Positions 4,512-54,970 are shown, numbered from the stretch's first letter. The stretch is DNA of 54,970 nucleotides from Gammaproteobacteria bacterium (GCA_026710875.1 JAPOQE010000163.1:1-54970); one strand, 5' to 3'. Program-made: numbers and translations. Notes: generated by a model from the letters alone, not told the origin.

Positions 4512-4548
4512 TGCTTTTCCAAGCTCAAACGAGGTAGCGAGGTAGCAC

Positions 4549-5274: not shown

Positions 5275-5504
5275 CACCCTCTGGGCATAGGTCCCAAAAA
5301 TGAGGTCCGCAGGGCTTCACCCTTGTCATTTGCGCCCGATCGTGGCCCTGCGCGCGTGCGTCCCGAGGGCAGGATGACCCCGTCAGCAACAAAAAACTGT
5401 TGCAATCGCATTTTATTGTATTCAGGATTGGACAGCATTGCGGGCGCAGACACGCTGCTCGCCGGGAAAACAATCTTGTTTATTTAGTAAGGAGTACGAT
5501 CGAG

Positions 5505-5696
5505 ATGCGAAAATTTATTCTGGTTTTGTTTTTTTCCGCGCTACTGGCTGCTTGCAGCAGTGAAGAAGCCGATCATTCTGCCGACACTGCCAATGAAGCC
5601 GCAGAAGCGCCTGCAGCTGAGGGTCATGCCAGCGAAGGGGAACATTCAGAAATGGATGAAGCTGCAGCAGCTGAGCACACGGAGGAAGGCTCTTAA
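5505..5696 (+). CDS. Small acidic His/Glu-rich putative lipoprotein (63 aa)
   Basis: ATG at 5505 preceded by AAGGAG at 5489-5494. Signal peptide with lipobox 'LLAAC'. The mature part is Glu/Ala/His-rich ('EGHASEGEHSEMDEAAAAEHTEEGS'). The ORF-track start at 5400 lacks a signal peptide and SD. Confidence 0.55.
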   Translation: MRKFILVLFFSALLAACSSEEADHSADTANEAAEAPAAEGHASEGEHSEMDEAAAAEHTEEGS

Positions 5697-5962
5697 GCCG
5701 ACGAAGCCTGAAGATATCTGCTGGCGGTATCTGGCCGGGTATATCCTCGGAAAGTGCCCGCTGGCAGGCATCCTGGTCTGAGTCATGCCTGGCATGGCTA
5801 CAGGCATCTTAATTCTATCGGTTACCGGACGGGGTGCCGGCCATCGCGACCGGGGGACGGGTCCTTGCCGGTAATCTGGCCAAGCGCGCTCACTGTGTGC
5901 CTGTCGGCTTTGATGGATAGGCCGACGAGCTGATACCCCTCTATACAAGTACCTTGCAGGCG

Positions 5963-6577
5963 ATGGAAAACAGCCAACTTTTTATTGTCTCCGGGCCCTC
6001 CGGGTCTGGCAAGACGAGTTTGGTCAAGGCACTCGTGGAGAATGCTCCGGATGTGGTGGCATCGGTGTCCCACACGACCCGGCCCATGCGTCCCGGTGAA
6101 GTCAATGGCCAGGACTACATATTCATAAATATTTCAGTGTTCAAGGCCATGATCGACCGGGGTGAGTTTCTGGAATATGCCGAAGTCTTCGGCAATTTCT
6201 ACGGCACCTCGCAATCATCTGTACAGGGTCTACTTGAGAAGGGCTGCAGGGTGATTCTGGAGATTGACTGGCAGGGCGCACGACGGACCCGCCAGCGGAT
6301 TCGCGGTACCACATCAATTTTCATACTTCCTCCTTCCAGATCCGCCTTGGAGCACCGCCTTCGCAGCCGCGGTCAGGACAGCGATGAGACGGTTTCAAGA
6401 AGGATGCGCAAGGCGGAAAGTGAAATCAGTCACTATGACGAGTTTGATCACGTGGTTCTGAATGATGAGTTTGACCATGCACTGCATGATCTTGACTGCC
6501 TGATCTCCTGTCCGGAACGTTTTCAGCCGCTGGATACCGAGGTATTGCAGTCCCTGACCCGGGAGCTTCTCGGATAG
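5963..6577 (+). CDS. gmk: Guanylate kinase
   Basis: P-loop 'GPSGSGKTS' and gmk-rpoZ-spoT synteny. The ATG at 5963 is preferred over the upstream TTG at 5954. Confidence 0.95.
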   Translation: MENSQLFIVSGPSGSGKTSLVKALVENAPDVVASVSHTTRPMRPGEVNGQDYIFINISVFKAMIDRGEFLEYAEVFGNFYGTSQSSVQGLLEKGCRVILEIDWQGARRTRQRIRGTTSIFILPPSRSALEHRLRSRGQDSDETVSRRMRKAESEISHYDEFDHVVLNDEFDHALHDLDCLISCPERFQPLDTEVLQSLTRELLG

Positions 6578-6645
6578 TGCTGGATGCCGGAGGATGAATT
6601 CGTTAGTATTGACCGTTCCCTGATATGTTTTTGTAGGAGTATGGA

Positions 6646-7128
6646 ATGGCTCGGGTGACTGTTGAGGATTGTTTGGAGCACGTAGAGAACCGCTTTGAGT
6701 TGGTCTTGCTGGCGAGTAAGCGCACGCGCCAACTGGTAATGGGAGTCGAGGCACTTGTCGAGTGGGAAAATGACAAACCAACCGTGGTTGCGCTGCGTGA
6801 GATTGCAAAGAACCTGGTCAACGAGGAGATGATGGAGGCTGCGATGGCAGCTCCTGCAGAGGGGGAAGGCGCTGAATTTGGTGAAGACGAACTGGCAGCC
6901 CTGTACACAGAGATCAGCCGAGAGCTCAACGAGACCCGCCCAGAAAATGATAACCCGGAAAAGCCGAATGCCCTGCAGGAGTCAGAGGACCAGCTGCTGA
7001 GCAAACGCCTGCAACGCCTGATTGAAGAAGACGAGGCTGCGGCAAGCAAAGAGCCGCAGATACAGGCTTCGCCCCCTGAACCTTCGCCGCAGGCGGATTC
7101 GTCCGATGAAGGGGAACAGGAGTCCTAG
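6646..7128 (+). CDS. rpoZ: RNA polymerase omega subunit with long acidic C-terminal extension
   Basis: N-terminus '[30 protein letters not shown]' is the canonical omega core. The remaining ~90 aa are acidic and low-complexity. Confidence 0.93.
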
Positions 7129-7158
7129 GCGGCTTTCTGATCCGCTTGTTTTGCGGCA

Positions 7159-9330
7159 ATGGCTAGTGTTGTAAAACCCGCTAGCAGGCATCTAGTCGCA
7201 GATCATCCTACACGTTTTTTGATCAGCGACCTTTGTGCGTTGCTGGAAACCTATCTCGATGCACCGCAAGTCAAGACGGTGTACTACGCCTACTTGTTAA
7301 GTGCGACAGCACATGAAGGCCAGACACGCCTCACCGGCGAACCCTATATCTATCACCCACTTGCCGTAGCCCGGGTCTTGGCAGGTATGCACATGGATGC
7401 GCAGACCATTGCTGCCGCCGTATTGCATGATGTGATCGAAGATACGGAAACGGCCAAGGAGCAGATCATTCAGGAGTTCGGCAAGGATGTGGCTGAACTG
7501 GTAGACGGGGTCAGCAAACTTACCAATTTGGAGTTCGGGTCCAAGCAGGAAGCGCAGGCCGAGAACTTCCGCAAAATGATGCTCGCTTTCGCAAAGGACG
7601 TGCGTGTCATCATCATCAAGTTGGCAGACCGGCTACATAATATGCGTACCCTGAGCGGGGTGGCCTTCGAAAAACGCAAGCGGATTGCACGCGAAACCCT
7701 GGACATCTATGCCCCCATTGCAATGCGACTTGGAATGCACGAGTTGTGCATGGAGCTCGAAGAGCTTTCATTCAAAACATTATGGCCAAGGCGCTACGAA
7801 GTGTTACAGGACTCAGTGAATCGCACGAACGTAAATCGCAACAAGCTGCTCCAGGAAGTGGAGAAAAATATCTGCGAGAGACTGGATGATGCCGGTATTG
7901 TCAGCCGGATCCACGGGCGCGAGAAAAATATTTACAGCATCTACAGAAAAATGAAGGAAAAAAATCTTCAGTTTTCCGAGGTCTTTGATGTTTTCGGGTT
8001 CCGTATCGTCGTCGGCGATGTGGATACGTGCTACCGGGTACTCGGTGTGATCCATAACCTGTATAAGCCGGTCCCCGGCAAGTTCAAGGATTATGTTGCC
8101 ATACCCAAAAAAAATGCCTACCAGTCATTGCATACCATTTTGTTCGGCCCGAAAGGGATTCCGGTTGAAGTGCAGATTCGCTCCGAAGAAATGGATCAGG
8201 TTGCCCTGTCCGGAATTGCCGCCCACTGGATGTACAAGGGGGGTGAGGGCGATCATGGAGGGGCACATACGCGGACACAGGAATGGCTCAAGACGGTCTC
8301 GGAGATCCAGCACAGCTCGGGCAGTTCGCTTGAATTCCTGGAAAGCGTAAAGGTCGATCTGTTCTATGATGAGATTTATGTGTTCACCCCGATGGGCGAT
8401 ATCATGGAGTTGCCCCGTGATGCGACGGCTGTGGATTTTGCCTATGCGGTGCACTCGGACGTCGGCAATCATTGTGTCGGAGCACGGATCAACCGTCGGC
8501 TCGAGCCGTTCAGCACGATTCTGGAAAATGGACAAACCATTGAAATCATTACTGCGCCTGAAGGCCATCCAAGCCCGGACTGGCTGAACTTCATCGTTAC
8601 CGCGAAGGCGCGTACAAATATTCGAAGTTATCTGAAAAACCTGCAGGCCGAAGAAGCGGGCATCTTGGGTCAACGGCTTCTCAACCAGGCATTGCTTGCC
8701 TACGACAAGACTTGGGACGATGTCAGCAAGCGCGATTTGGCACGCTTGCTCAATGAACTGCAGTTGGAATCCGAGCAACAACTGTTTGTAGAAGTCGGGC
8801 TAGGGGATCGGATGGCTCCTTTCGTAGTCAAGCACCTGGTTTCCTTGCGCGGATTGTGGATGAAATTGCGGTCCCGTAGTGAAAGAAAAAATCCCTTGGC
8901 AATCCGTGGTACAGAGGGCATGGTGGTCAGTTACGGAAAATGCTGTCACCCCATACCCGGGGATTCCGTGATCGGCCTGATGACAGCCGGCAAGGGACTG
9001 GTAGTGCATTATGCCAAGTGCCGCAATATCGTACGACGCAGGAAACAAAACCGTGACCAATGGATCAACGTCTATTGGGACCGTAATCCAGGCAGTGAGT
9101 TTTCCGCGGAAATCAGTATCAAGACGGCAAATGAGCGCGGTGTGCTGGCGGTGGTAGCAGCCAAGATTTCAGAAGAGAGTTCCAATATCGAGAACATCAT
9201 TCTGGATGAAAAATTTGGCGCAACCACCACGATCACAATTTTGCTCACCGTCAGGGACCGTGATCACCTGGCGAGTATCATACGGGCGGTGCGCAAAACT
9301 CCAAAAGTCTACAAGGTCAAACGCATTTAA
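7159..9330 (+). CDS. spoT: Bifunctional (p)ppGpp synthetase/hydrolase SpoT
   Basis: HD hydrolase motif 'HDVIEDT', a RelA/SpoT synthetase region, TGS and C-terminal ACT-like regions. 723 aa, in rpoZ-spoT-recG synteny. Confidence 0.95.
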   Translation: MASVVKPASRHLVADHPTRFLISDLCALLETYLDAPQVKTVYYAYLLSATAHEGQTRLTGEPYIYHPLAVARVLAGMHMDAQTIAAAVLHDVIEDTETAKEQIIQEFGKDVAELVDGVSKLTNLEFGSKQEAQAENFRKMMLAFAKDVRVIIIKLADRLHNMRTLSGVAFEKRKRIARETLDIYAPIAMRLGMHELCMELEELSFKTLWPRRYEVLQDSVNRTNVNRNKLLQEVEKNICERLDDAGIVSRIHGREKNIYSIYRKMKEKNLQFSEVFDVFGFRIVVGDVDTCYRVLGVIHNLYKPVPGKFKDYVAIPKKNAYQSLHTILFGPKGIPVEVQIRSEEMDQVALSGIAAHWMYKGGEGDHGGAHTRTQEWLKTVSEIQHSSGSSLEFLESVKVDLFYDEIYVFTPMGDIMELPRDATAVDFAYAVHSDVGNHCVGARINRRLEPFSTILENGQTIEIITAPEGHPSPDWLNFIVTAKARTNIRSYLKNLQAEEAGILGQRLLNQALLAYDKTWDDVSKRDLARLLNELQLESEQQLFVEVGLGDRMAPFVVKHLVSLRGLWMKLRSRSERKNPLAIRGTEGMVVSYGKCCHPIPGDSVIGLMTAGKGLVVHYAKCRNIVRRRKQNRDQWINVYWDRNPGSEFSAEISIKTANERGVLAVVAAKISEESSNIENIILDEKFGATTTITILLTVRDRDHLASIIRAVRKTPKVYKVKRI

Positions 9331-9346
9331 ATAAGGGGATCTACAC

Positions 9347-9730
9347 ATGGGACGCGAGATCATTGAAACTACACGTGCACCGCAGGCCATCGGCACCTAT
9401 TCACAAGCGGTCAAGGTGGACAGCACTGTCTATATGTCAGGTCAGATTCCGCTCGACCCGGATTCCATGCAGTTGGTCGGCGACGACATGAGAACACAGA
9501 TTACCCAGGTATTTGAAAATCTTCGTTCGGTGGCAGAAGCTGCCGGTGGCACACTCGATCATGTGGTGAAGCTGAATATTTTTCTAACGGATCTTGTTCA
9601 TTTTCCTTTGGTCAATGAAATCATGTCCAAATACTTTTCAAAACCTTACCCAGCACGTGCAGCGATCGGTGTGGCTGCGCTGCCCAAGGAGGCGGGCGTG
9701 GAAATGGATGCCGTAATGCAGCTTGACTGA
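9347..9730 (+). CDS. ridA: RidA/YjgF family reactive-intermediate deaminase
   Basis: 127 aa with 'APQAIGTYSQAV...GQIPLDP' and C-terminal 'PARAAIGVAALPKEAGVEMDAV', typical of YjgF/RidA. Confidence 0.9.
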   Translation: MGREIIETTRAPQAIGTYSQAVKVDSTVYMSGQIPLDPDSMQLVGDDMRTQITQVFENLRSVAEAAGGTLDHVVKLNIFLTDLVHFPLVNEIMSKYFSKPYPARAAIGVAALPKEAGVEMDAVMQLD

Positions 9731-9780
9731 AACAGCCATCCTGTACCCTCTTCTGTCTGGACGGACCGGACCCCTCACAA

Positions 9781-11886
9781 ATGAACCGGGATGAAGCCGC
9801 CATAGACCGCGACATTTTCCCTCCGGTCACTTCGCTCAAGGGTGTAGGCCCTAAAATCGAAGGGCATCTGCAGCGTTTGCGGATTCATACAGTTCAGGAC
9901 CTGCTTTTTCATTTGCCTATCCGTTATCAGGACCGCACGCGAGTGCGTCCAATTGGAGCCTTGCAGCCCGGTGATGAATGTGTGCTGCTGGGGACGGTGG
10001 ACCACAGTGAAATGGTGTATCGGAAACGGCGCATGTTACTGGTCAGTATCAGTGATGGCACCGGCAGGATCCTGTTGCGGTTTTTTCATTTCAACAAGAC
10101 ACAACAGGAAAACCTGGCACCCGGCGTCAATATCCGTTGTTTCGGTGAAGTCCGGCGCGGGGTCTCGACCCTGGAAATGGTGCATCCCGAATACGAGATC
10201 CAGCGCACGAGCGGCGCGGTCAAGGTTGAAGATCACCTGACTCCCATTTATCCGACCACGGAAGGACTGCACCAGCTTGTCTTGCGCCGCATGACCTCGC
10301 AGGCGTTACGCTGGTTCGAGAGGGAGGAGGCCCCGGACATTGACTTGTTGCCGGATGTTCCCGAAATCGATGGCTGCAAACCCTCCGTCCTCGAGGCATT
10401 GAGGTTTGTCCATCGTCCTCCGCCGGAAGCGGACACGCAGGCACTGGCAGCGGGGACACATGTGATGCAGCGCCGTCTGGCCTTCGAGGAATTGCTGGCT
10501 CAGCGGTTGAGCCTTTTCCGGCTGCGGTTGCGAATGCAAAAGCAGCCGGCGGTGCCCATTTCGCCAGCCGGGCGCCTGTATGCGCGGTTGATCGAAGCAC
10601 TGGAGTTCACGCCGACTTCGGCCCAACAACGGGTGATCGAAACGGTGTTTGCAGATCTGAGGAAAAGTTACCCGATGCTGCGTCTGGTGCAGGGTGATGT
10701 GGGAAGCGGCAAGACCCTCGTTGCCATTGCGGCTTGCCTGCACGTCATTGAAGCGGGTTATCAGGCCGTTGTGATGGCACCCACTGAAATACTTGCGGAG
10801 CAGCACCTGCAGAATTTTTCGAACTGGCTGGCGCCCCTGGGTGTGCAACTGGCCTGGCTATCAGGGCGCATGACCGCGGCCAGGAACAGCGAGATGAAAG
10901 AGCGCATCTCCAGCGGCACGGCGCAGGCGATTATTGGTACCCACGCACTGTTCCAGGAGGGAGTGACCTTTAAGAACCTGGCCCTGGTGGTTGTCGATGA
11001 ACAGCATCGTTTTGGTGTGCATCAGCGCATGGCCTTGCGCGAAAAAGGTGTACACGGCGCAGGCAGCCCCCACCAGTTGATCATGACAGCGACACCGATC
11101 CCGCGGACACTGGCAATGACCGCCTATGCCGACCTCGATTATTCCGTCATCGACGAGATGCCGCCGGGACGCAAGCCGGTCAGTACGATTGCAGTGTCGC
11201 AGGAGCGGCGAGATGAAGTCATCGAGCGCGTCGCCCATGCATGTCAACGCGGCCAGCAGGCGTACTGGGTGTGCACACTGGTTGAAGAATCAGAGGCGAT
11301 GCAGTGCCAGGCAGCGGAGAACGTTTACCAGGAGCTTGACCGGTTGCTGCAGGGGGTTCGTGTCGGCCTGGTGCATGGACGCATGAAAAGCCGGGAAAAA
11401 AATGCAGTAATGCAGGACTTTGCATCCTCCAGGATCGACCTGCTTGTGGCCACTACCGTGATCGAAGTGGGTGTTGATGTCGCGAATGCCAGTCTGATGA
11501 TCATTGAAAATGCTGAACGCCTGGGCCTTGCACAACTGCACCAGCTTCGTGGCAGGGTGGGGAGGGGTGCCCAGGAAAGCAGCTGCGTGATGCTGTACAG
11601 CCCCCCGCTCACCGATAATGCCAATCTGCGCATCGACACCATGCGCGCCACGAACAACGGATTCAAGATTGCCCAGGTCGATCTCGAAATCCGGGGCCCG
11701 GGAGAGGTACTGGGTACCCGTCAGACCGGGATGCTGCAGTTGCGCATTGCCGATATCCTGCGCGACCAGGACCTGATCCCCCAGGTACAGGAAAGTGCAA
11801 AAAAACTGTTCGCCGAGCACCCTCACCTGGTCGATGCCCTGGTGCACCGGTGGCTTGGGAAATCGATTGAATTCGGTCAGGTGTAG
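9781..11886 (+). CDS. recG: ATP-dependent DNA helicase RecG
   Basis: Wedge domain N-terminus, Walker A 'GDVGSGKT', 'VVDEQHRFG', 'TATPIPRT', 'QLRGRVGRG'. 701 aa. Confidence 0.96.
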   Translation: MNRDEAAIDRDIFPPVTSLKGVGPKIEGHLQRLRIHTVQDLLFHLPIRYQDRTRVRPIGALQPGDECVLLGTVDHSEMVYRKRRMLLVSISDGTGRILLRFFHFNKTQQENLAPGVNIRCFGEVRRGVSTLEMVHPEYEIQRTSGAVKVEDHLTPIYPTTEGLHQLVLRRMTSQALRWFEREEAPDIDLLPDVPEIDGCKPSVLEALRFVHRPPPEADTQALAAGTHVMQRRLAFEELLAQRLSLFRLRLRMQKQPAVPISPAGRLYARLIEALEFTPTSAQQRVIETVFADLRKSYPMLRLVQGDVGSGKTLVAIAACLHVIEAGYQAVVMAPTEILAEQHLQNFSNWLAPLGVQLAWLSGRMTAARNSEMKERISSGTAQAIIGTHALFQEGVTFKNLALVVVDEQHRFGVHQRMALREKGVHGAGSPHQLIMTATPIPRTLAMTAYADLDYSVIDEMPPGRKPVSTIAVSQERRDEVIERVAHACQRGQQAYWVCTLVEESEAMQCQAAENVYQELDRLLQGVRVGLVHGRMKSREKNAVMQDFASSRIDLLVATTVIEVGVDVANASLMIIENAERLGLAQLHQLRGRVGRGAQESSCVMLYSPPLTDNANLRIDTMRATNNGFKIAQVDLEIRGPGEVLGTRQTGMLQLRIADILRDQDLIPQVQESAKKLFAEHPHLVDALVHRWLGKSIEFGQV

Positions 11887-11908
11887 CTGAGCGCCAGAGG
11901 GGTATCGC

Positions 11909-12202
11909 TCAAATTCCGAAGGTGCCTATCAGCATCGTCGTCAGGTAGATGCCGAACAGGCCGAGCAAGGCTAGCAAGGACAGGCTGTGCAGCCGGCCAG
12001 CCTGGCCGGAGAACACGGCACCGGCACTGAAAATCAGGCCAAGGCCGGCAATCGTGAAGGAAATCCAGAATACCGTGTTGACACAGGCGGTTTGACAGGA
12101 GCGTCCATCAAATGGGCCAGACAATAACTGCACCACCAGAAAAACAGCCAGCAGCCAACTCGTGACTGCGCTGAAAAAGGAAATCCACGAACTTTCTGTC
12201 AT
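11909..12202 (-). CDS. Small hypothetical membrane protein (3 predicted TM)
   Basis: Hydrophobic ORF convergent with recG. The ATG at 12202 is preferred. The GTG at 12247 has GGAGG only 1 nt upstream, which is too close for an SD. Confidence 0.4.
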   Translation of the reverse strand: MTESSWISFFSAVTSWLLAVFLVVQLLSGPFDGRSCQTACVNTVFWISFTIAGLGLIFSAGAVFSGQAGRLHSLSLLALLGLFGIYLTTMLIGTFGI

Positions 12203-12322
12203 GTCTGCCTCAAGCACTGGCCGGTTTCCATCCCGGTCCTGTATCACTCCTCCCTTCAGGAGATTATGCCATAGTGCAGGTTCATTTTTTATGACCGCGC
12301 AATCTTCGGTTCGTGACGCGTC

Positions 12323-12691
12323 CTAAAGCAGCAAGTGTATGATCTGGTCCTGGACGGTGCAGGCAAGGGCGCGCAGGTGCTGGTTTTTACAGGGGCCGTA
12401 GATGCAAAGGCCATCCTTGATCTGAAAAAGGGCGCCATGATTGGCACACATGATATAATTTGCATCTTCATCAAGAAAGCGGTCGGGTACCCAGTCCAAA
12501 GCCCCGCGCGTATGGGGGCATGAATTTTCATAGGCATACACCTGCCGGTCTTTTTTGACGACCAATACTCGGGTCAGCACATTTTGATGCTCCACAATCA
12601 GGCCTTTGCTGCCAGGGTCAGGAATATCGTCGTAATGACATAATTGTGTTCCTAGCAAGCTCATGGGAGTTAAAATGTTACCCGCATCCAT
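12323..12691 (-). CDS. Rieske [2Fe-2S] domain protein
   Basis: Rieske ligand motifs 'CPHTRG' and 'CANHGALF' (CxH...CxxH) with the expected spacing. 122 aa. Confidence 0.85.
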   Translation of the reverse strand: MDAGNILTPMSLLGTQLCHYDDIPDPGSKGLIVEHQNVLTRVLVVKKDRQVYAYENSCPHTRGALDWVPDRFLDEDANYIMCANHGALFQIKDGLCIYGPCKNQHLRALACTVQDQIIHLLL

Positions 12692-12718
12692 CGATTATTA
12701 AAAACCAGCTGAGAAATC

Positions 12719-13156
12719 ATGCAAAAACCAAATTGTTTCCCGACTTCAGAACAGGCTGAACAGGCATTTTACCGATCATTCAAGGAAGCGGACATCGAAT
12801 TGATGATGTCGGTATGGGATCGGGGTAATGACGTTGTATGTATTCATCCGGGAGGACCGCGCTTGCAGGGCGTGTCGATTGTCCGCAAGAGCTGGGAACA
12901 ACTGTTCTCCTATGAGCAGGGGCTTGAGCTCAGGGTGAACAAGATAAGCGCGGTACTGGAGAAAGAGGTGGCCATACACCATGTGGTGGAGGACATCTAT
13001 GTCGAAGGTGAGCTGCAGTCAGAGATCTATGCCACCAATATCTACAGGAAGGTGAACGACAGCTGGCATATGGTTTTGCATCATGCTTCAGCGGAACTGC
13101 ATTCCGTCGTGGATCTCCTCGATGAGGAAACAGAAGAGGTGCAGACGATTCATTGA
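12719..13156 (+). CDS. NTF2-like / SnoaL-like (DUF4440-type) protein
   Basis: 145 aa. The pattern 'AFYRSFKEADIELMMSVWD...VVCIHPGGPRLQG...W' is typical of the SnoaL/DUF4440 fold. No catalytic assignment is possible. Confidence 0.6.
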   Translation: MQKPNCFPTSEQAEQAFYRSFKEADIELMMSVWDRGNDVVCIHPGGPRLQGVSIVRKSWEQLFSYEQGLELRVNKISAVLEKEVAIHHVVEDIYVEGELQSEIYATNIYRKVNDSWHMVLHHASAELHSVVDLLDEETEEVQTIH

Positions 13157-13174
13157 GTCCGCGATTCAAAGGGC

Positions 13175-14869
13175 TCAATACACATAGTAAAAAATCAGGT
13201 AGATGCCGAGCAGGAAGGCCACCCAAAGTACCATGCTGCCCGTGGGCCAGGTTCTGGCAAGCAGTCCCTGGGGTCCATGATGACGATGCAGGCGAACGCC
13301 CACGTCAAATGAAAGTCTTTTGACCCACACGATGACCTGTTGCTCACTCGCTACGACAGCGCGCACTGCGTACTGCGCCAGCCAGCGCCCCGGTTTGCGG
13401 TAGAGCCAGTCTGCATCCAGGTTCACGGAGCGTAATTCCGGAGGATACAGGCCTTGTCGCACAAGCCAGGTGAAGGCAAGTGCCGAGAAGAACAGCAACT
13501 GGAGCTGGGTAATCACGTGCGTCGTCGTGTAGGGCTGGTAGTCCGTCTGGTAAGGCAGTAGCGCGTACAGGGTTTGTGGAAAGATCCCGATACACATGGA
13601 AAATGTGGCTGCAACCGCCATGGCAACCAGCATGCTGGTTGGCGCTTCCTTGCAGCGAATACCGCTGTCATGGGCAAAAAATGCGAAGTACGGTATTTTT
13701 ATGCCCGCATGGTGGAACACGCCGGCGGATGCGAACAGTAAAACCAGCCACGTAAACGTATAGCCTTCAAGGCCTGCGGCCTCCATGATCATCGATTTTG
13801 TGACAAAGGCGCTAAACAGGGGAAAGGCAGAAATCGAAGCCGCACCAATCACACAAAATACCGTGGTGTAGGGCATCGATTTGTACAGACCGCCCAGGTC
13901 GGAGCCGTTGATCCGCCCCGTGCGCAACAGCACGGCACCCATGCTCATGAATAGCAGTCCCTTGAACAGGATATCCGCAAAGGCGTGGGCCGCAGTGCCA
14001 TTGAGTGCAAGCTCGGTTCCGATACCAATGCCAACCACCATGAAGCCCAGCTGATTGATCATGCTATAGGTAAGCACCCGGCGCAGATCATTTTCGATGA
14101 CGGCGTAGAAAATCGGGAAGGCGGCCATCAGCAGACCGATCCAGATAAGAATCTCGGCACCGTAAAATGTGGTGGCCAATGCATAAACAGCCATTTTCGT
14201 AGTGAATGCCGACAACACTACCGTCCCGGTAACGGTCGCCTGGGGGTAGGCATCCACGAGCCAGTTGTGCAACAGGGGAAATGCACACTTGATTCCAAAT
14301 GCGAGAAAGATCAGCAGTCCACCCGCCGTACCCAGGTCCAATTGTGTGAGCTCAATGGATCCGCTGGCGCGGGCATGCAGGATGATGCCGGATAACAGCA
14401 GGAGCCCCGAGATGACCTGCACGATCAGGTAGCGCATGCCGGCACGGTAGGATGCCTGGGTGCGCCTTGCCCAGATCAGGAACACTGACGAAATGGCGGC
14501 TGCTTCCCAGTAGATGAACAGTGTGACCAGATCACCGGCCAACACCACGCCGAGCGCGCAGCCCGCATAGACCAGGCTGACCATCTGCTGCAGGCGATCC
14601 CGGGAATGCAGTGAATAGAGCATCAATATGAAGGCCGCAATATGAAAGATCACTGCAAACATGAAGCTGAGCTTGTCGAGATGCAGGGTGCTCAGCAGCA
14701 TGCCGAGGACCTCAACCTCTGTACGGCTGCCGGCGGGCAGGGGGTAGAGCTGCAAAAATGAAAGGACTGGGAGCAGGAGGACATAGGTCGTGCGGAGGCT
14801 GGCTTTCAGGGCGGGGATCAGTAACGCGCCGAGTATCAGGATAAGTGCCGGGTTCAGGTCAGTGATCAC
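13175..14869 (-). CDS. Antiporter-like proton-conducting membrane subunit (NuoL/MrpA-N/MrpD family), 564 aa
   Basis: About 16 TM segments with the family core 'WLVDAYPQATVTGTVVLSAFTTKMAVY'. Last gene of the Mrp-like cluster. Confidence 0.85.
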   Translation of the reverse strand: MITDLNPALILILGALLIPALKASLRTTYVLLLPVLSFLQLYPLPAGSRTEVEVLGMLLSTLHLDKLSFMFAVIFHIAAFILMLYSLHSRDRLQQMVSLVYAGCALGVVLAGDLVTLFIYWEAAAISSVFLIWARRTQASYRAGMRYLIVQVISGLLLLSGIILHARASGSIELTQLDLGTAGGLLIFLAFGIKCAFPLLHNWLVDAYPQATVTGTVVLSAFTTKMAVYALATTFYGAEILIWIGLLMAAFPIFYAVIENDLRRVLTYSMINQLGFMVVGIGIGTELALNGTAAHAFADILFKGLLFMSMGAVLLRTGRINGSDLGGLYKSMPYTTVFCVIGAASISAFPLFSAFVTKSMIMEAAGLEGYTFTWLVLLFASAGVFHHAGIKIPYFAFFAHDSGIRCKEAPTSMLVAMAVAATFSMCIGIFPQTLYALLPYQTDYQPYTTTHVITQLQLLFFSALAFTWLVRQGLYPPELRSVNLDADWLYRKPGRWLAQYAVRAVVASEQQVIVWVKRLSFDVGVRLHRHHGPQGLLARTWPTGSMVLWVAFLLGIYLIFYYVY

Positions 14870-15113
14870 CGTAGTAGTCCTCGTTGCGCTTCACGACCTT
14901 GCGCATCTGCTTGGCGAGCAGGACCAGAATCACGCAGGCGATGAAACCAAACCACGCAAAAAAACCAAACCAGTTCTCAAAAGGAAAATAGATGTGCTTG
15001 TGATAAAAGAAATCGAGCAGCATTAAAGCCGCACACAGGGCATACAGACCGTACACAAGCTTGCGGACATTGCTTGAGCTGTCCAGCCAGTATTTATTTT
15101 TCTTGCCATTCAT
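14859..15113 (-). CDS. Small 2-TM membrane protein embedded in the Mrp-like cluster (84 aa)
   Basis: Overlaps both neighbours by a few nt, indicating translational coupling. Two aromatic-rich hydrophobic helices and basic termini. No family recognised. Confidence 0.6.
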   Translation of the reverse strand: MNGKKNKYWLDSSSNVRKLVYGLYALCAALMLLDFFYHKHIYFPFENWFGFFAWFGFIACVILVLLAKQMRKVVKRNEDYYGDH

Positions 15114-16582
15114 GGATTAAAAACCGGGTAGAGAAAATCATAAATGGGCTGCACATAAAAAAACAGCAGCAAGGTTCCTGCAGCCGTTGCGCACAGGGGG
15201 ATCAGACACGCGAGCGGGGCTTCCTGTATCCCCGGGCCCGCGGCTGCCTGAGAAGGATCCGGTGGTTTGAAAAACGCCCGCAGGCCGATCGGCAGCAGGT
15301 AGGCGCAATTCAACAGGGTGCTCAGCGCAAAGGCAAGCAGCACGATGTAGTGCTGCGTGTCCATACTGCCTTCAATCAGCAGCCATTTGCTCCAGGCGCC
15401 GACAAAAGGCGGCAGACCGATCACACTGAATGCCGCAAGCAGGTACGCAGTGAACGTGAATGGCATCCTGTGGCCGAGGCCATTGAGCTGGCTGACTTGC
15501 GTAAGTTTCGTCGCGGTATAGATTGCTCCGGCGCAAAAGAACAGGGTGATCTTCCCGAAAGCATGCGTGACGATGTGCAAGGCGCCTCCCATGGCGGCTG
15601 CAGGCCAGGCCAGTGCAGCGCCAATGACGATGTACGCGAGCTGGCTGATTGTGGAATAGGCCAGCCGTGCCTTTAAATTGTCCTTGCTGAGTGCAATCAC
15701 CGAAGCGATCACCATGGTGGCCACTGCCAGCCACAGGATCCAGGTCGAGGCGTCCTGTGCCGCCAGGTAATCAATCCCGAAGATGTACACGGATATCTTG
15801 AGCACGGAGAATACCCCGGCCTTGACCACCGCCACGGCATGCAGCAAGGCGCTCACAGGCGTGGGCGCAACCATGGCCGCTGGCAGCCAGCGGAAAAAGG
15901 GCAACAGTGCGGCCTTGCCGATACCGACCATGAACAGTGTAAACAGCAACAGTGCAGCCACGCCGTCGGTGTTTCCTGCAAGAACGCCACCGGGTTCGAA
16001 ATTCAGCGTGTCGGCCTGAATCCAGGTAATGACCAGGGCCGTCAGGAAAAACATGATCGAGGTTCCAAGCAAGAGTCCCAGATAAACCCGCCCGCCACTT
16101 TTTGCCTCCGCAGTTTGCTTATGTGTCACCAGCGGATAGGTGGACAATGTCAACGCCTCATAGAAAATGAACAGCGTGAACAGGTTGGCTGCAAAGGCGA
16201 TGCCCATGGTGGCTGCAATCGCCAGCGAAAAGAACAGGTAAAAGCGGGTCAGGTTCTTTTCTGCATTGCCGTTCATGTAACCGATGGAGTACACGGTGGT
16301 GATGAACCACAGAGCGGCTGCCAGCAAGGCAAAAACAAGCCCGAGAGGTTCCAGGTGAAAAGCAATGGAGAGGCTGGCAGAGATGTTCAGCAGGGTGTGT
16401 ATGGAAGTCGGTTCGGTGTAGTGCTCCAGCAGTTGTGTGACATACAGAATCAGGAGGATTCCGGCAAGCAGTGAGCTCGTCTCGCGGAGCTTTGGACGGT
16501 CGTGGAACAGGAGGACCATGATTCCGCCTAGCAGGGGGATCAGAAGCGCAAGCTCGATGTGTTGCAGCAGCAGGCTCATCAT
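15110..16582 (-). CDS. mrpD: Mrp/Mnh antiporter subunit D-like (NuoM/N family), 490 aa
   Basis: Multi-TM protein with 'WLPAAMVAPTPVSALLHAVAVVKAGVF' (conserved Lys/His core of the antiporter-like subunit). Confidence 0.88.
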   Translation of the reverse strand: MMSLLLQHIELALLIPLLGGIMVLLFHDRPKLRETSSLLAGILLILYVTQLLEHYTEPTSIHTLLNISASLSIAFHLEPLGLVFALLAAALWFITTVYSIGYMNGNAEKNLTRFYLFFSLAIAATMGIAFAANLFTLFIFYEALTLSTYPLVTHKQTAEAKSGGRVYLGLLLGTSIMFFLTALVITWIQADTLNFEPGGVLAGNTDGVAALLLFTLFMVGIGKAALLPFFRWLPAAMVAPTPVSALLHAVAVVKAGVFSVLKISVYIFGIDYLAAQDASTWILWLAVATMVIASVIALSKDNLKARLAYSTISQLAYIVIGAALAWPAAAMGGALHIVTHAFGKITLFFCAGAIYTATKLTQVSQLNGLGHRMPFTFTAYLLAAFSVIGLPPFVGAWSKWLLIEGSMDTQHYIVLLAFALSTLLNCAYLLPIGLRAFFKPPDPSQAAAGPGIQEAPLACLIPLCATAAGTLLLFFYVQPIYDFLYPVFNP

Positions 16583-51059: not shown

Positions 51060-51173
51060 TGCTAGTGCTACAGCACAACCCGCTTCCCTCCCTAAGCGGG
51101 CATTTTCGACTTGGAAATTCCAACCAAGTCACGATTAGCCCCGGTTTTTCAATTTGACCGGGGCGCCTTTTTT
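51060..51173 (+). ncRNA. Candidate small RNA or structured 3' UTR (three hairpins plus intrinsic terminator)
   Basis: Hairpin 51079-51100 has a CCCGCTT/AAGCGGG stem and the loop CCCTCCCT. Hairpin 51108-51130 has a GACTTGG/CCAAGTC stem. A terminator hairpin follows at 51138-51164 with a T-run. A possible sigma70-like promoter is TTCATG-18 nt-CATAGT just upstream. The 5' end is not determined. Confidence 0.25.
51138..51173 (+). terminator. Rho-independent terminator (+ strand), overlapping the engB stop codon
   Basis: 8-bp GC-rich stem GCCCCGGT/ACCGGGGC with an 11-nt loop, followed by GCCTTTTTT. On the minus strand no U-run follows the hairpin. Confidence 0.75.
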
Positions 51174-51792
51174 AGTCCTGATCCGCTCTATACAAAGCTT
51201 GATGGACCCATGCCGAAATTTTTTCCTGAACCTGCACAATGCCGATCCGTTTCGTGGCTGAAAATATCTGTGTCCCTGCATCGAATCCACGCTGCTCCAG
51301 TTCGGAAGTGACTCGGGTCAGCGACTTGGTCATCGTATTTCTGTTGACCTTATCAACCTTTGTCAACAGGACATAAAGAGATAGCCCGTAATGCTTGCTC
51401 CAGTGGACCATGGTCCAGTCAATATCAGTCAATGGATGGCGAACATCCATCAGTAAGACCAGACCACACAATGCATGGCGCTGGACCAGATAGGACTCTG
51501 TCAGTCTTTGCCATTGGCGCTGTTTGGGAGCGGGTGCCTTGGCATAACCATAACCGGGCAGATCCACAAGTCGGATGTCACCATCCAGTTTGAAGAAATT
51601 GATCAACTGTGTGCGCCCGGGTGTCTTACTGGTGCGTGCCAGATTGTTTTGTTGACAGATGGCATTGAGCGCACTTGATTTCCCGGCATTGGAGCGGCCG
51701 CAAAATGCAATTTCTGCCCCCTTATCTTGAGGAAAATCTTGTAGGGTGCTGGCACTTTTCAAAAACCGCACTTGTTGCAAAGGCAGACTCAT
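51172..51792 (-). CDS. engB: Ribosome-biogenesis GTPase EngB (YihA)
   Basis: G1 'GRSNAGKSSALNA', G3 'DLPGYG', G4 'TKVDK'. The ATG at 51792 gives ~206 aa, the typical EngB length. polA/engB neighbourhood as in E. coli. Confidence 0.92.
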   Translation of the reverse strand: MSLPLQQVRFLKSASTLQDFPQDKGAEIAFCGRSNAGKSSALNAICQQNNLARTSKTPGRTQLINFFKLDGDIRLVDLPGYGYAKAPAPKQRQWQRLTESYLVQRHALCGLVLLMDVRHPLTDIDWTMVHWSKHYGLSLYVLLTKVDKVNRNTMTKSLTRVTSELEQRGFDAGTQIFSATKRIGIVQVQEKISAWVHQALYRADQD

Positions 51793-52048
51793 AGACACGC
51801 AATCACTGGTTTTTTTGGGAGCATTGTATATAAAAACATTTCGCAACCTTGGCCATTTGCAGTTATCCCTGTTTACAGTATGGCAACAATGGGGACTTTA
51901 AGTGAACCAATTCAGACTGAAACCGCTGCTTTAATTTGCTGCACGCCGCTTTCTTGGATGAACAGCCACCCCCAGTGAATACATCGCAATTGTCGTTGTG
52001 GATACTTTGGCGATATTATACTTCGCGTACCAAGGGGGAAAATTTGAT

Positions 52049-52861
52049 ATGATCCACGACCACGACAATCAAGACAAGAGTGTTTGGGACGTGATCCAAA
52101 TCTACCTGCATCAGCTTCTCCGTGCTCAAAACCTGATAGCGAGAGCCAGGCGCGCCAAGACATTTGATGACCAGGTATTTAATACCGAACGCCTCAAATT
52201 TGTCTCTGAAACACTGGATACGCTGAACATTGATCTTGAAAAGATGAAGCTCAGACTATCTATTAAGCAGTTGAGGTGTGTAAAGAAAAAACTCAAAAGC
52301 CTTATAGAAAACCCGCCCCAGGAAAATATAAAGATTGAGGCCATATTGCTTGGCAAGGCACTGGATGAGCTTCAGGGCCGCGTTGAAGATGAGCTTGAAA
52401 TAAGCCTGCTGTATTACTTTAATTCAAAAGAAAAGGAGAGGATTAAACAGACAGGCAAGGTGTTCGGCACCGAGGTATGGAAGAAGCTTCCTGAAGCACG
52501 CGATGAACTGAATGAGGCCGTGAGTTGCATGGGCTTTTCACGCTGGACAGCCAGCGTATGTCACATGATGCGGGCGATAGAGTGCGTGCTGCATGTGATC
52601 TCGGACAGACTTGGGGTGACGGTAAAGCCGAACTGGAATTGGGGCACCATCATCAGGGAAATAGATAAGAAGATCGAAACTATGCCTAAAGGAGATGAAA
52701 AGGATTACTGGTTTGACGTTAAGCTGCACATTCTGTGCATAAAGAACTGTAGGCTCAAATCCATGCATGTACGCGCAGGCTACATGTTCGGTCAGGAAGA
52801 TGCGGAGAAAATATATCAGGCTGTCAAAGGCTTTCTGCAAAGCCTTGCCAAAGAGATCTAG
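52049..52861 (+). CDS. Hypothetical coiled-coil protein with C-terminal DUF4145/HEPN-like domain (270 aa)
   Basis: ATG at 52049 with AGGGGGA 9 nt upstream. The N-terminal half is helical and coiled-coil. The C-terminal half reads 'ARDELNEAVSCMGFSRWTASVCHMMRAIECVLHVI ... LHILCIKNCRLKSMHV...GQEDAEKIYQAVKGFLQSL'. This is a 4-helix HEPN-like layout with an Rx4H motif (R codon 52751-52753, H codon 52766-52768). Confidence 0.6.
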   Translation: MIHDHDNQDKSVWDVIQIYLHQLLRAQNLIARARRAKTFDDQVFNTERLKFVSETLDTLNIDLEKMKLRLSIKQLRCVKKKLKSLIENPPQENIKIEAILLGKALDELQGRVEDELEISLLYYFNSKEKERIKQTGKVFGTEVWKKLPEARDELNEAVSCMGFSRWTASVCHMMRAIECVLHVISDRLGVTVKPNWNWGTIIREIDKKIETMPKGDEKDYWFDVKLHILCIKNCRLKSMHVRAGYMFGQEDAEKIYQAVKGFLQSLAKEI

Positions 52862-52998
52862 TGCTTCTTGCGCTTGGGATTTACAACCTTCTCAAATGCC
52901 TCATCTAGGGGCTGGGTATCACACCCCAGCTCCTTGGCCTTTTTGACAAAGCGCTTGTATTGCTCGGGATCCTCGGGCTTTATCTTCTTTTTCGGCAT
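52858..52998 (-). CDS. Small Lys-rich hypothetical protein (46 aa), or the C-terminal tail of the upstream membrane protein
   Basis: Translation: MPKKKIKPEDPEQYKRFVKKAKELGCDTQPLDEAFEKVVNPKRKKH. The ATG lies 19 nt inside the end of the 92-aa ORF and has no SD. Its stop overlaps the stop of the convergent 270-aa gene by 4 nt. Confidence 0.4.
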   Translation of the reverse strand: MPKKKIKPEDPEQYKRFVKKAKELGCDTQPLDEAFEKVVNPKRKKH

Positions 52999-53258
52999 GA
53001 TGGAAACGTGAACACGTAATACAGAAACCAGATAGGCGTGCCGAACAGAACCGCCAGCGTGATCAAGGTCGTGAGCGCAGATAACAGCGTCCCTTCCGCG
53101 ATCCCTTCCCAAAGCCCCATGATTATGAAGGGCGCAAACACCCACCCTGCAAACCGCCAGTTATCCCCGCGTGTAGGGGGATCGCTTGAAAGATCAAGCA
53201 TGTACCCGCCTGCGCACATGTAGGCCGCAAACAGCAGGTAAACCCAAATTGGCATCAT
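52980..53258 (-). CDS. Small hypothetical membrane protein (92 aa, 3 TM)
   Basis: Good SD (AGGAGA) 5-6 nt upstream of ATGATG. Three hydrophobic helices. Co-oriented with the MTase-HNH gene. Confidence 0.6.
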   Translation of the reverse strand: MMPIWVYLLFAAYMCAGGYMLDLSSDPPTRGDNWRFAGWVFAPFIIMGLWEGIAEGTLLSALTTLITLAVLFGTPIWFLYYVFTFPSCRKRR

Positions 53259-53294
53259 TTTTATCTCCTGTGATGCTAGAATATTACCATGAAC

Positions 53295-53310
53295 TCAAAT
53301 TTGAAATTTG
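53295..53310. promoter_or_regulatory. Palindrome / tandem heptamer (operator-like) in the 76-nt gap inside the island operon
   Basis: TCAAATTTGA is a perfect 10-nt palindrome (53295-53304) and overlaps the tandem AAATTTG AAATTTG (53297-53310). An adjacent + strand extended -10, TGcTAGAAT, lies at 53274-53282. Confidence 0.25.
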
Positions 53311-53334
53311 AACACGTACCCGCTACCAGCAAAC

Positions 53335-53640
53335 TCATGAGTCGGACGGCTTCTCGCTTGCAAGGTCTACGCGAGTATGAATTGACTCAAAGAGAAGGTT
53401 CAGCGCGTCCTGATGCGCCTTCAACAGGTGAGACAGATACTTCTCGGTATCAGGGTTCTCAACAAGCGACTGCCTGATACTCTCTCTGACATCAATCTCT
53501 AGCGTGTTTGCTGTGGTCTTGGGGTCTTCGGTCTCCAGTATGAACCATGCGCATAGCTGGGCAACCAGCAAGTTCAATACAGCAACATGAGCCACGACTT
53601 CCAGATACGCCCCTTGTGGCTCGTTTAATTCTTCTGTCAT
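53335..53640 (-). CDS. Hypothetical helical protein (101 aa) translationally linked to the MTase-HNH gene
   Basis: GGGAGGA SD 6 nt upstream of the ATG, and 11 nt after the MTase-HNH stop. No recognisable motif. Confidence 0.6.
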   Translation of the reverse strand: MTEELNEPQGAYLEVVAHVAVLNLLVAQLCAWFILETEDPKTTANTLEIDVRESIRQSLVENPDTEKYLSHLLKAHQDALNLLFESIHTRVDLASEKPSDS

Positions 53641-53651
53641 ATTTCCTCCCG

Positions 53652-54881
53652 TTATAGTTGTAGCTTGGTTTTCAGGTACTCCATGCCCCGATCACCCTTG
53701 ATGCGATTACAGTTGCTGCACAGCAGTTGCAGGTTCTCGATGTGATCCCCGCCCCCCTTGCCCTTCGCGATGATGTGATCCACCTCAAAGTGTTGAGGCT
53801 TGAAATGATCCTCGCACCCATTACAGTGTCCGCCCTGCTCTCCATACAGCTTGACCCGATTGGCCTTGCAGTTGTAGGGCGGTAGCTTGCCGAGATCCGT
53901 GCGCCTGGGTATATCCCTGCGATGGATGGCTGTGCCAAACATGGGTGTGTGATCGCCCACCTGTTTCCGTTCTCCGAGATTCACTTCCTTGTTCAACCTC
54001 TGCCCTACCAGTTCATGGGCTTTGGCACTGATGTCAATTCCAACCCATTGCCTGTTTTCAATCTCTGCCGCAACACACGTAGTGGCACACCCGCAAAATG
54101 GATCAAGTACCACGTCTCCCTCGTTACTGGATGCCCTGATAATGCGCTCCAACAAGGCCAAAGGCTTTTGGGTAGGGTAGCCAACCCGCTCTTTGGCATT
54201 CGGATTTATAATTGAAATCTCCCACCAGTCCGGGCATGGGTTTTCTGCTGGTTTTTGGGTTGCCACCTGATGCCTTCTACCCTCAATAAATACCGACTGC
54301 TGTTTTTTTCCTTTCCATCTTTTCAGGGTGCCCGGACCAACAGGCACGGTTTGGATGTTAAATACATTTGCATTTGACTTTGAGTAGAAAAGCAGCACGT
54401 CATGATTTCTCACAAATTGGCTGCTATTAGTTGCCCATTTCCTGTAGCACCAAACCACTTCATTCCTGAATGCCTTGCGCCCCCAGATCGCGTCCATTAC
54501 GAGCTTCAGGTAGTGGCTCATGGTCGGATCGCAGTGCAGGTAGATCGAGCCTGTGGGCTTGAGTATGCGGTGCATCTCCAAAAGGCGCGGGGCCATGTAC
54601 GCAAGGTAGGACTTGTCGCTGTTGGTCATCGCGGCCAGCAGGATGCGATGCAGGGCAGGATGCTTGGCCTCAATGAGATTGATCCACTCGGTGTCCACGT
54701 CGCGCAGTGTCCACGTATCCTTGAACTCGGCCCCCGCAGCTTCACTGCCGATAGGTGCCGCGTAATTGGCCTTGGAGTTAAATGGCGGGTCGAGGTAAAT
54801 CAGATCAACCGAGGCGCTATTCAGCCCCCGCATGATGGGCAGGTTATCCCCTGTCCATATGGTCTTATCAGCCCAATTCTG
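53652..54881 (-). CDS. Beta-class N6A/N4C DNA methyltransferase fused to a C-terminal HNH endonuclease; 5' end lost in homopolymer sequence
   Basis: Motif IV 'LDPPFNS' (about 54780-54791) precedes motif I 'VLDPFCGCATT' (about 54075-54110), which is the beta-class order. The C-terminal ~55 aa read 'HCNGCEDHF...EVDHIIAKGKGGGDHIENLQLLCSNCNRIKGD', giving CxxC...DH...N...CxxC, a zinc-ribbon HNH (about 53680-53830). Residues encoded beyond 54881 are a translation of a poly-G/C tract. Confidence 0.85.
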   Translation of the reverse strand, partial: QNWADKTIWTGDNLPIMRGLNSASVDLIYLDPPFNSKANYAAPIGSEAAGAEFKDTWTLRDVDTEWINLIEAKHPALHRILLAAMTNSDKSYLAYMAPRLLEMHRILKPTGSIYLHCDPTMSHYLKLVMDAIWGRKAFRNEVVWCYRKWATNSSQFVRNHDVLLFYSKSNANVFNIQTVPVGPGTLKRWKGKKQQSVFIEGRRHQVATQKPAENPCPDWWEISIINPNAKERVGYPTQKPLALLERIIRASSNEGDVVLDPFCGCATTCVAAEIENRQWVGIDISAKAHELVGQRLNKEVNLGERKQVGDHTPMFGTAIHRRDIPRRTDLGKLPPYNCKANRVKLYGEQGGHCNGCEDHFKPQHFEVDHIIAKGKGGGDHIENLQLLCSNCNRIKGDRGMEYLKTKLQL

Positions 54882-54882
54882 C

Positions 54883-54970
54883 GGGGGGGGGGGGGGGGGG
54901 GCTCCCTCCCCCCCCCCGTCCCCAAACCCAACCCCCCCCCCTCTCCACACCCTTGGTGCGGTCTCCCCCC
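54883..54970. repeat. Homopolymer / low-complexity G- then C-rich tract at the contig end (probable sequencing or assembly artefact)
   Basis: A run of 19 G (54883-54901) is followed by C-rich low-complexity sequence to the last base. It sits at the extreme end of the window. Confidence 0.8.

Follow-up and report, generated by a model that had tools for sequence, protein, structure and literature searches.

Positions 52009–54970 of contig JAPOQE010000163.1 from a gammaproteobacterium (GCA_026710875.1) very probably represent the transposase-distal ~2.9 kb of a transporter insertion sequence (tIS) of the IS1595 family. The whole contig of 54,970 nucleotides (nt), referred to here as the window, ends beside engB in five open reading frames (ORFs): p270, encoding a HEPN-like protein; three small genes, p46, p92 and p101; and MTase-HNH, encoding a fusion of a DNA methyltransferase (MTase) and an HNH nuclease domain. 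An element end is present in the window itself, and the transposase, terminal inverted repeats (IRs) and target-site duplications (TSDs) are found in complete syntenic elements elsewhere (loci with L numbers below); the domains of the encoded proteins and the association statistics of the genes provide further evidence. The transposase of this copy is presumed, by analogy with these elements, to lie beyond the contig end.

Element end and gene content

The features of the region, in window coordinates, are as follows.

52001..52008, no strand: presumed engB-side copy of the TSD, GATACTTT, by analogy with the perfect 8-bp duplications of L008, L005, L006, L004 and 32 genome loci; the second copy is off the contig
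52009..52033, plus strand: terminal IR GGCGATATTATACTTCGCGTACCAA, reading inwards; the one site in the window that fits the IR consensus, near-identical to the ends of L008, L004 and L051
52049..52861, plus strand: p270, helical N-terminal domain and C-terminal HEPN domain (R235-x4-H240), putative RNase; from the family alignment, Pfam matches of family members and an AlphaFold2 (AF2) model
52858..52998, minus strand: p46, small basic protein (MPKKK...DPEQYKRF..AKELG...); from a hidden Markov model (HMM) family found in HEPN loci
52980..53258, minus strand: p92, predicted small membrane protein, variable cargo; from hydropathy peaks
53335..53640, minus strand: p101, small helical protein with a strong ribosome-binding site (RBS), close-coupled to MTase-HNH; homologue P0124
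53652..~54893, minus strand: MTase-HNH, N6_N4 DNA methyltransferase and HNH nuclease (PF01555, PF01844); extreme N-terminus lost in the artefact that follows
54879..54970, no strand: poly-G/poly-C low-complexity contig end, from sequence reading (80% GC) and from the homology to L008, which stops at 54893

The IR end of the window (GGCGATATTATACTTCGC...) starts 40 nt before the p270 start codon and is the only match to the end found in L008, and DNA homology to L004 starts at position 52008. The IR type of L005 and L006 (GTCAAGTATATAATTCCC) is absent from the window. The engB ORF occupies 51172–51846 on the minus strand, and comparison with the EngB protein of L051 places its start probably at an ATG at 51792, leaving 51793–52008 as intergenic DNA upstream of engB.

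An ORF scan of the raw sequence recovered all five ORFs with the strands and spacing given in the initial annotation. The stop codon of MTase-HNH and the start of p101 are separated by 11 nt. p46 shares 19 nt with p92 and, at the 3' ends of both ORFs, 4 nt around CTAG with p270; the stop triplets of p46 and p270 have 52859–52860 in common. The sequence GGGGGA serves as the RBS of p270. That the region is accessory, horizontally acquired DNA was also borne out; its true boundary is the terminal IR at 52009 and not position 51847, where the foreign DNA had been said to begin. The AT-richness reported earlier (~40% GC in the 270-codon gene) was overstated: p270 has a GC content of 46.1%, and the whole element 50.1% versus 52.7 ± 1.9% in core windows of the same size, a weak contrast of ~1.4 standard deviations. 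While none of the five genes has a housekeeping identity, as annotated, p270 is no orphan, its family comprising 3398 cluster representatives.

No tRNA or Rfam element marking a region boundary was found in the window, and promoter and terminator scans of the region gave matches at chance level only. One sigma-70-like match at 51990–52019 has its -10 box (TATTAT) within the terminal IR and its -35 box (TTGTCG) in the host flank; it would form a hybrid promoter for p270 and, with promoter-like sites in the region at chance level, is a lead only.

Complete elements with related architecture

The closest structural counterpart is L008, which has the same gene order as the window: a transposase with Zn_ribbon_IS1595 and DDE_Tnp_IS1595 domains (PF12760 and PF12762), MTase-HNH, p101, a hydrophobic ORF, p46 and a convergent HEPN gene. 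This block is enclosed by a pair of 27-nt inverted repeats (TTGGCTATATTATACTTTACACACCCA) at 4505...8804. The locus was reached via P0124, the sole homologue of p101, and only through it was the correct IR type found. The HEPN gene of L008 is divergent in sequence, and its MTase-HNH is frameshifted (2x long-read contig). Complete elements were delimited as follows.

L008: 4300 bp, perfect 8-bp TSD AATACTTT
L051: 4660 bp, matching IRs and perfect 8-bp TSD AAAATATC; Gammaproteobacteria metagenome-assembled genome (MAG), transposase and window-like architecture
L004: 10172 bp, perfect 8-bp TSD AAAAATAT
L005: 3201 bp, perfect 8-bp TSD AAAACTTG
L006: 2413 bp, perfect 8-bp TSD TTGAAGTT

The transposase precedes MTase-HNH in both L008 and L051, in line with the earlier suggestion that further components, an integrase among them, might be missing beyond the contig end; in the present copy a mobility gene is expected there by analogy. 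In L004, the HEPN gene and p46 occupy the same element end as in the window. The closest MTase-HNH homologues lie directly downstream of an IS1595 DDE transposase in L006 and L007, and the order in L005 is transposase, P63C-domain gene, MTase-HNH; the units of L005 and L006 are bracketed by inverted repeats starting GGGAATTATATACTTGAC.

Several features of these loci were noted in passing. The middle cargo of L004 (element at 5774–15945) differs, consisting of a 305-aa lipoprotein-like ORF, a 175-aa protein with two transmembrane segments and several small ORFs; its transposase is closely related, with ~1 kb and two ORFs between the transposase and the IR, and its HEPN gene is interrupted by a frameshift (long-read contig). 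In L005, the P63C-domain gene (7039–8004) follows a short IS1595 transposase ORF and represents another exchangeable passenger. L006 contains a second and more distant MTase-HNH paralogue (4493–6262) of 479 aa with 38% identity, and a 106-aa ORF comes after it. This paralogue lies 2 kb upstream of the copy carried by the insertion sequence (IS), and the surroundings are dense in IS1595, IS256-like and group II intron genes.

Distinct but related tIS copies are located in the dsbA-cytochrome c4/engB intergenic region of three related Gammaproteobacteria, in both orientations, at L004 5766–5773 and 15946–15953, L051 7917–7924 and window 52001–52008. On the cytochrome c4 side, L004 and L051 have orthologous junctions (AGTCGC-AAAA(A)TAT(C)/GGCGAT, the slash marking the junction), and in L004 the same 8 bp also adjoin a second IS. 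Read from sequence, this pattern suggests either that the region is an insertion hotspot or that insertion is targeted next to IR-like sequence.

The HEPN-like gene p270 and its partner p46

An exhaustive HMMER search assigned the 3398 cluster representatives to the p270 family, 967 of them at E <= 1e-10 and mostly 250–280 aa in length. In an alignment of 81 family sequences, H172, E178, W198, R235 and H240 are invariant, and the consensus at R235/H240, AWRNxTMHPK, contains the HEPN Rx4H signature. Among these 81 members, 21 match the Pfam HEPN family (PF05168, best 8e-08), six match Hypoth_Ymh (PF09509) and five match DUF4145 (PF13643). The C-terminal ~130 residues of p270 are thus, judged at the level of the family from the motif and the Pfam matches of its members, HEPN-like, as initially annotated; a helical N-terminal domain of ~135 aa precedes them. 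An alignment-based AF2 model of p270 is all-helical with a mean confidence (pLDDT) of 88.5; it was used in place of the single-sequence model, which reached 46. Generic helical bundles score like HEPN structures against this model in Foldseek. Searches of the Protein Data Bank (PDB) with p270, as sequence and as profile, yielded coiled-coil noise only, and in Pfam, NCBIfam, PADLOC and PHROGs no meaningful match was obtained beyond one weak PHROG of unknown function. The family as a whole has no consistent PADLOC match, and annotated plasmids label its members 'hypothetical protein'. An identical p270 adjoins engB in three other metagenome contigs.

The HEPN alignment was used to scan a single genome of each species and gave 80 loci, spanning Alpha- and Gammaproteobacteria, Acidobacteriota, Nitrospirales, Chloroflexota, Gemmatimonadales, Planctomycetes and others. 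An IS1595 transposase is present in the flanks of 44 of them. In 34 (56%) of the 61 informative loci (those whose downstream flank spans >=2.5 kb), a convergent IS1595 transposase is found at a median gap of 253 nt. A search of the HEPN loci for IRs and TSDs returned 34 candidates, 32 of which are convincing, having a transposase, the consensus GGCGATATTATACTTGAC and a perfect 8-bp TSD; most of these elements measure 2.0–2.2 kb.

p46-like ORFs were identified with an iterative HMM (core motif DPEQSKRF.E.AKE.G) in 25 of the 80 HEPN loci, as well as in L004 and L008. The family measures 46–60 aa and has a conserved MPKKK start. The p46 copy beside the HEPN gene lies on the strand of the transposase, with L059 as the sole exception, and 22 of 27 convergent HEPN/p46 pairs (including three duplicate contigs of the same species) overlap at their 3' ends by 4–59 nt, with a mode of 29 nt. 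The basic element of the clade is therefore [IR-HEPN-> <-p46 <-Tnp-IR], where Tnp denotes the transposase. p46 itself matches nothing in Pfam, NCBIfam, PHROG or PADLOC. For L002, the gene caller predicted a 95-aa, GTG-started ORF corresponding to window 52858–53145, which overlaps p92 by 166 nt; homology to the p46 family (46–60 aa, MPKKK start) argues for the 46-aa p46 together with p92 as the correct gene model.

The MTase-HNH fusion

The fusion of the two domains is genuine, as first annotated: the protein matches PF01555 (3e-49) and, in its C-terminal part, PF01844 (2e-12). Sequence reading identified the motifs DPPF and FCGCATT and an HNH domain with CxxC...CxxC zinc-finger cysteines and the catalytic His. 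The MTase part belongs to the beta class and, on the DPPF motif, is probably an adenine-N6 (m6A) enzyme. Its nearest solved relatives in the PDB are M.RsrI, M.MboIIA and CcrM (1e-16 to 1e-21 for structures of the M.RsrI/M.MboIIA type). The best PADLOC match is MTase_II (8e-69), the other PADLOC matches being generic Type III or orphan MTases, and the protein also matches the DNA-methyltransferase and HNH families of PHROG.

The MTase-HNH family is very large and well conserved, at least 8000 proteins with a length of ~400 aa having this architecture. The best homologues are 60–74% identical at 100% coverage from the residues NWADK onward, so that the protein in the window is essentially full length. 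An IS1595 transposase or transposase fragment directly precedes MTase-HNH in seven of the nine closest homologues inspected. A metagenome scan with the protein returned three marginal loci only. N6_N4 MTases of phages and plasmids match the MTase part only, at 30–47% identity, and reach >=80% query coverage in two records per collection. In the MTase-HNH of L051 (9868–11394), the two halves of the MTase domain are separated by an insertion of ~100 aa relative to the window protein; this insertion may represent a different target-recognition region and hence confer a different methylation specificity.

The small genes p92 and p101

p92 contains hydrophobic segments in hydropathy analysis, in agreement with its annotation as a small membrane protein, which is a prediction only. 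It is conserved in the same-species contigs L001–L003 only, and its position in L008 is occupied by an unrelated hydrophobic ORF of 61 aa. The single homologue of p101, P0124, is 62% identical and lies in L008 at the identical position after MTase-HNH, with the same spacing of 11 nt. From this close coupling in two elements, p101 may be an accessory of MTase-HNH. Neither p101 nor p92 has a meaningful match in Pfam, NCBIfam, PHROG or PADLOC, a PDC-S26 hit of p101 (16 bits) being at chance level. Both were considered as conserved components of the locus and rejected, positional analogues without detectable similarity occurring in L051, L004 and L008.

Modularity of the cargo

The two larger modules of the window are also found apart. 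Elements of 2.4–3.2 kb consisting of a transposase and MTase-HNH without HEPN, p46 or p101 are represented by L005, L006, L007 and L092, and both modules are combined as in the window in L008 and L051 only. Between L051 and the window, the HEPN proteins are 27% identical and the MTase-HNH proteins ~68%, and the ORFs between MTase-HNH and p46 in L051 are unrelated to p101 and p92. This difference in identity indicates that the modules have assorted independently and not as a conserved five-gene system.

The contig end

The last ~90 bases of the window (54879–54970) are poly-G/poly-C with 80% GC and are an assembly or sequencing artefact. The tract looks like poly-G of two-colour chemistry or an assembly artefact, and starts at a genuine G-run that encodes PPPQNW in the N-terminus of MTase-HNH, whose counterpart in L051 reads SAPPPQNW; homology of MTase-HNH to L008 DNA stops at ~54893. 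The first ~20 codons of the ORF ('MWRGGGVGFGDGGGEG...') are consequently not real, and gene callers either extend the protein by a spurious N-terminus or take M40 as its start. The tract conceals the beginning of MTase-HNH and the expected transposase. No longer assembly across the contig end was found, and exact-protein look-ups of p101 and p92 gave no other contigs. Contigs usually break where assembly meets a multicopy IS gene, and the identification of the region as a tIS end explains the break at this position.

Evaluation of alternative explanations

Some observations weigh against the tIS assignment or against the roles proposed for its cargo. The window shows one IR end and one flank, the transposase and the second IR and TSD lying outside it. 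No convergent transposase is nearby in 27 of the 61 informative HEPN loci, and two plasmid copies of the HEPN family that were inspected are not IS-linked, so that the family is not exclusive to tIS. The window p270 itself has no Pfam HEPN match and reads RLKSMH where the family has RNxxxH, thereby missing the usual polar residue after the Arg, and Foldseek matches to the HEPN structures 1ufb, 3o10, 1o3u and 1wol have target TM-scores of 0.59–0.65 at poor E-values (>0.7 for these four, and >0.06 for matches to HEPN structures in general). Furthermore, the toxin, antitoxin, methylase and nuclease activities are all putative.

The initial annotation had interpreted the five genes as one candidate defence or modification system. 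That they form a dedicated, unnamed anti-phage system of methylase-nuclease, HEPN RNase, membrane effector and small regulators, which adjoins a transposon or was captured by one, is quite improbable. MTase-HNH, p101, p46 and HEPN do occur together in L008, and MTase-HNH, p46 and HEPN in L051, and HEPN RNases are known to be coupled with restriction-modification (RM) systems as a fail-safe defence (Anantharaman 2013). However, HEPN, p46 and the transposase are found in at least 30 loci without an MTase, the transposase and MTase-HNH form elements of their own, and the unequal divergence of the two modules from L051 speaks for independent assortment. As to the co-occurrence proposed as a check, MTase-HNH, the 101-aa gene and the HEPN gene are all present in L008, L051 has no p101, and both loci represent the same type of transposon, which accounts for the combination of otherwise separable modules. 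p101 recurs in one locus and p92 in none outside the same species, and neither is conserved in L051. The initial annotation did not recognize the combination as a named system, and PADLOC returned generic Type II/III MTase matches only; no PADLOC system model fits, and p270, p92 and p46 match none. An integration remnant of a prophage or plasmid, in which MTase-HNH would be a phage-type orphan methylase or homing nuclease and the small genes morons, is highly improbable. It would account for the PHROG matches, for the related N6_N4 MTases in many phages and plasmids and for the close homologue L094, which adjoins ParA/ribbon-helix-helix (RHH) plasmid-like genes. Yet the matches to phages and plasmids span the MTase part only, at <50% identity, a transposon IR marks the start of the region, and IRs and TSDs flank the syntenic elements. 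A prophage fragment was rejected because phage genes for structure, replication or integration are absent from the window, as are tRNAs; plasmid backbone genes are likewise absent.

It is also unlikely that this copy is a dead fragment, a solo end with cargo left by deletion or rearrangement of the transposase and neither mobile nor a functional unit. The unseen transposase, the low-complexity DNA at the contig end and the degenerate copies found elsewhere (transposase fragments in L095 and L005, no transposase in L093) would fit such a history, but all five ORFs are intact, with RBSs and close coupling, and the HEPN/p46/p92 region is 99.9–100% identical in three other samples. In addition, MTase-HNH retains its catalytic motifs at 62–74% identity to full-length homologues, and the break itself is of the kind expected at a multicopy IS gene. 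A tIS end with its passengers is the explanation that we prefer.

Proposed organization and function of the element

If the tIS assignment is correct, the complete element would measure ~4.3–4.7 kb, with the organization [IR - HEPN gene -> <- p46 <- p92 <- p101 <- MTase-HNH <- DDE transposase - IR], and would occupy intergenic DNA upstream of engB. Its zinc-ribbon/DDE transposase would bind the ~25-bp terminal IRs and insert the whole unit with an 8-bp target duplication, and the far end is expected to be an inverted copy of GGCGATATTATAC... followed by GATACTTT.

A HEPN protein with the Rx4H motif and p46 are the standard passenger pair of a widespread ~2-kb IS1595 clade. p270 may resemble RNase toxins, with an activity or expression that depends on p46 and on the transposase-p46 transcript converging on its gene; the overlap of p270 and p46 at their 3' ends invites antisense interference. 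The HEPN/p46 module might then act as an addiction, abortive-infection or regulatory device. MTase-HNH, a frequent lone passenger of sister IS1595 elements, might be a single-chain, RM-like selfish or defensive module, in which m6A methylation would protect the host DNA and the HNH nuclease would attack unmodified DNA. p101 and p92 are variable small ORFs. The RNase toxin-like role of HEPN/p46 and the RM-like role of MTase-HNH are each put forward tentatively, from sequence features, and each is somewhat less likely to be right than wrong.

A broader and doubtful proposal is that HEPN and p46 may be a conserved accessory module of an entire clade within IS1595 that serves the transposon itself, with MTase-HNH as a second, exchangeable selfish module. 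The module might provide RNase-based addiction or retention, or RNA-level control of transposase expression. HEPN/p46 would, on this proposal, always lie at the transposase-distal IR, usually in convergent overlap with the transposase-p46 transcript, in a clade extending across Proteobacteria, Acidobacteriota, Chloroflexota, Gemmatimonadota, Nitrospirota and Planctomycetota, and its role might be comparable to that of other IS-encoded accessory nucleases.

Relationship to known systems

IS1595-family 'transporter IS' are characterized in the literature by ~25-bp terminal IRs, 8-bp direct repeats and passenger genes. Siguier, Gagnevin and Chandler reportedly dealt with tIS of this family in 2009, with MTnSag1 and tISCpe8 as examples. 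The ISNwi1/ISNwi1+ subgroup in ISfinder has ends reading 'ggnnatTAT', 8-bp direct repeats and sizes of 1.75–4.75 kb, and we take the present element to be ISNwi1-like on end motif and size only. The syntenic elements resemble tIS in their single DDE transposase with an N-terminal zinc ribbon, in their terminal IRs of ~18–27 bp starting GGnnAT(A)TTAT, in the perfect 8-bp duplications of related elements and in carrying passengers between the transposase and one IR, with sizes of 2–4.7 kb and up to 10 kb in L004. HEPN, p46, p92, p101 and MTase-HNH all lie inside the IR in the window, which fits the definition of tIS passengers. The cargo differs: the described examples carry lincosamide resistance (lnu) and mobilisation functions, whereas HEPN with p46 and MTase-HNH are found here. 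We found no link of IS1595 to HEPN or MTase-HNH passengers in the searchable literature.

With its C-terminal helical domain, its family-wide invariant Arg-x4-His, its location on a mobile element and, in this copy, its proximity to a methylase-nuclease gene, p270 resembles the HEPN RNase toxins (HEPN-MNT; DUF4145/Ymh/Abi-type, RM-linked; Anantharaman et al. 2013). Unlike in HEPN-MNT, no nucleotidyltransferase (MNT) gene is present in the visible element, where the neighbour is p46; the partner is a basic protein of 46–60 aa encoded convergently and not in an operon, and the ~135-aa helical N-terminal domain is an addition. The word transposase is absent from the 2013 HEPN survey (Anantharaman et al. 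2013). MTase-HNH shares DPPF, the beta-class motif order and the CxxC...CxxC HNH with single-polypeptide RM enzymes and beta-class m6A MTases (M.RsrI, M.MboIIA, CcrM) and with HNH restriction nucleases, but it is an IS passenger and not a stand-alone RM operon, and its HNH cutting of unmodified DNA is putative. Among solved structures, no characterized enzyme with the exact MTase-HNH architecture was found.

The tIS class is already known, and this cargo-carrying example of it is new; the association of HEPN/p46 with IS1595 is a side result of modest interest. In annotation, the region is better labelled a transposon (tIS) end with passengers than a defence island. Two uncatalogued families, one of HEPN proteins and one of small basic proteins, neither of which is represented in NCBIfam or PADLOC or has a Pfam entry of its own, emerge as habitual passengers of a widespread IS1595 clade, and sister elements commonly spread the abundant MTase-HNH family. 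Should these modules contribute to transposon maintenance or host defence, they would provide a cheap and very mobile route for RNase toxins and methylation/restriction between phyla, and would be a source of orphan methylation in MAGs.

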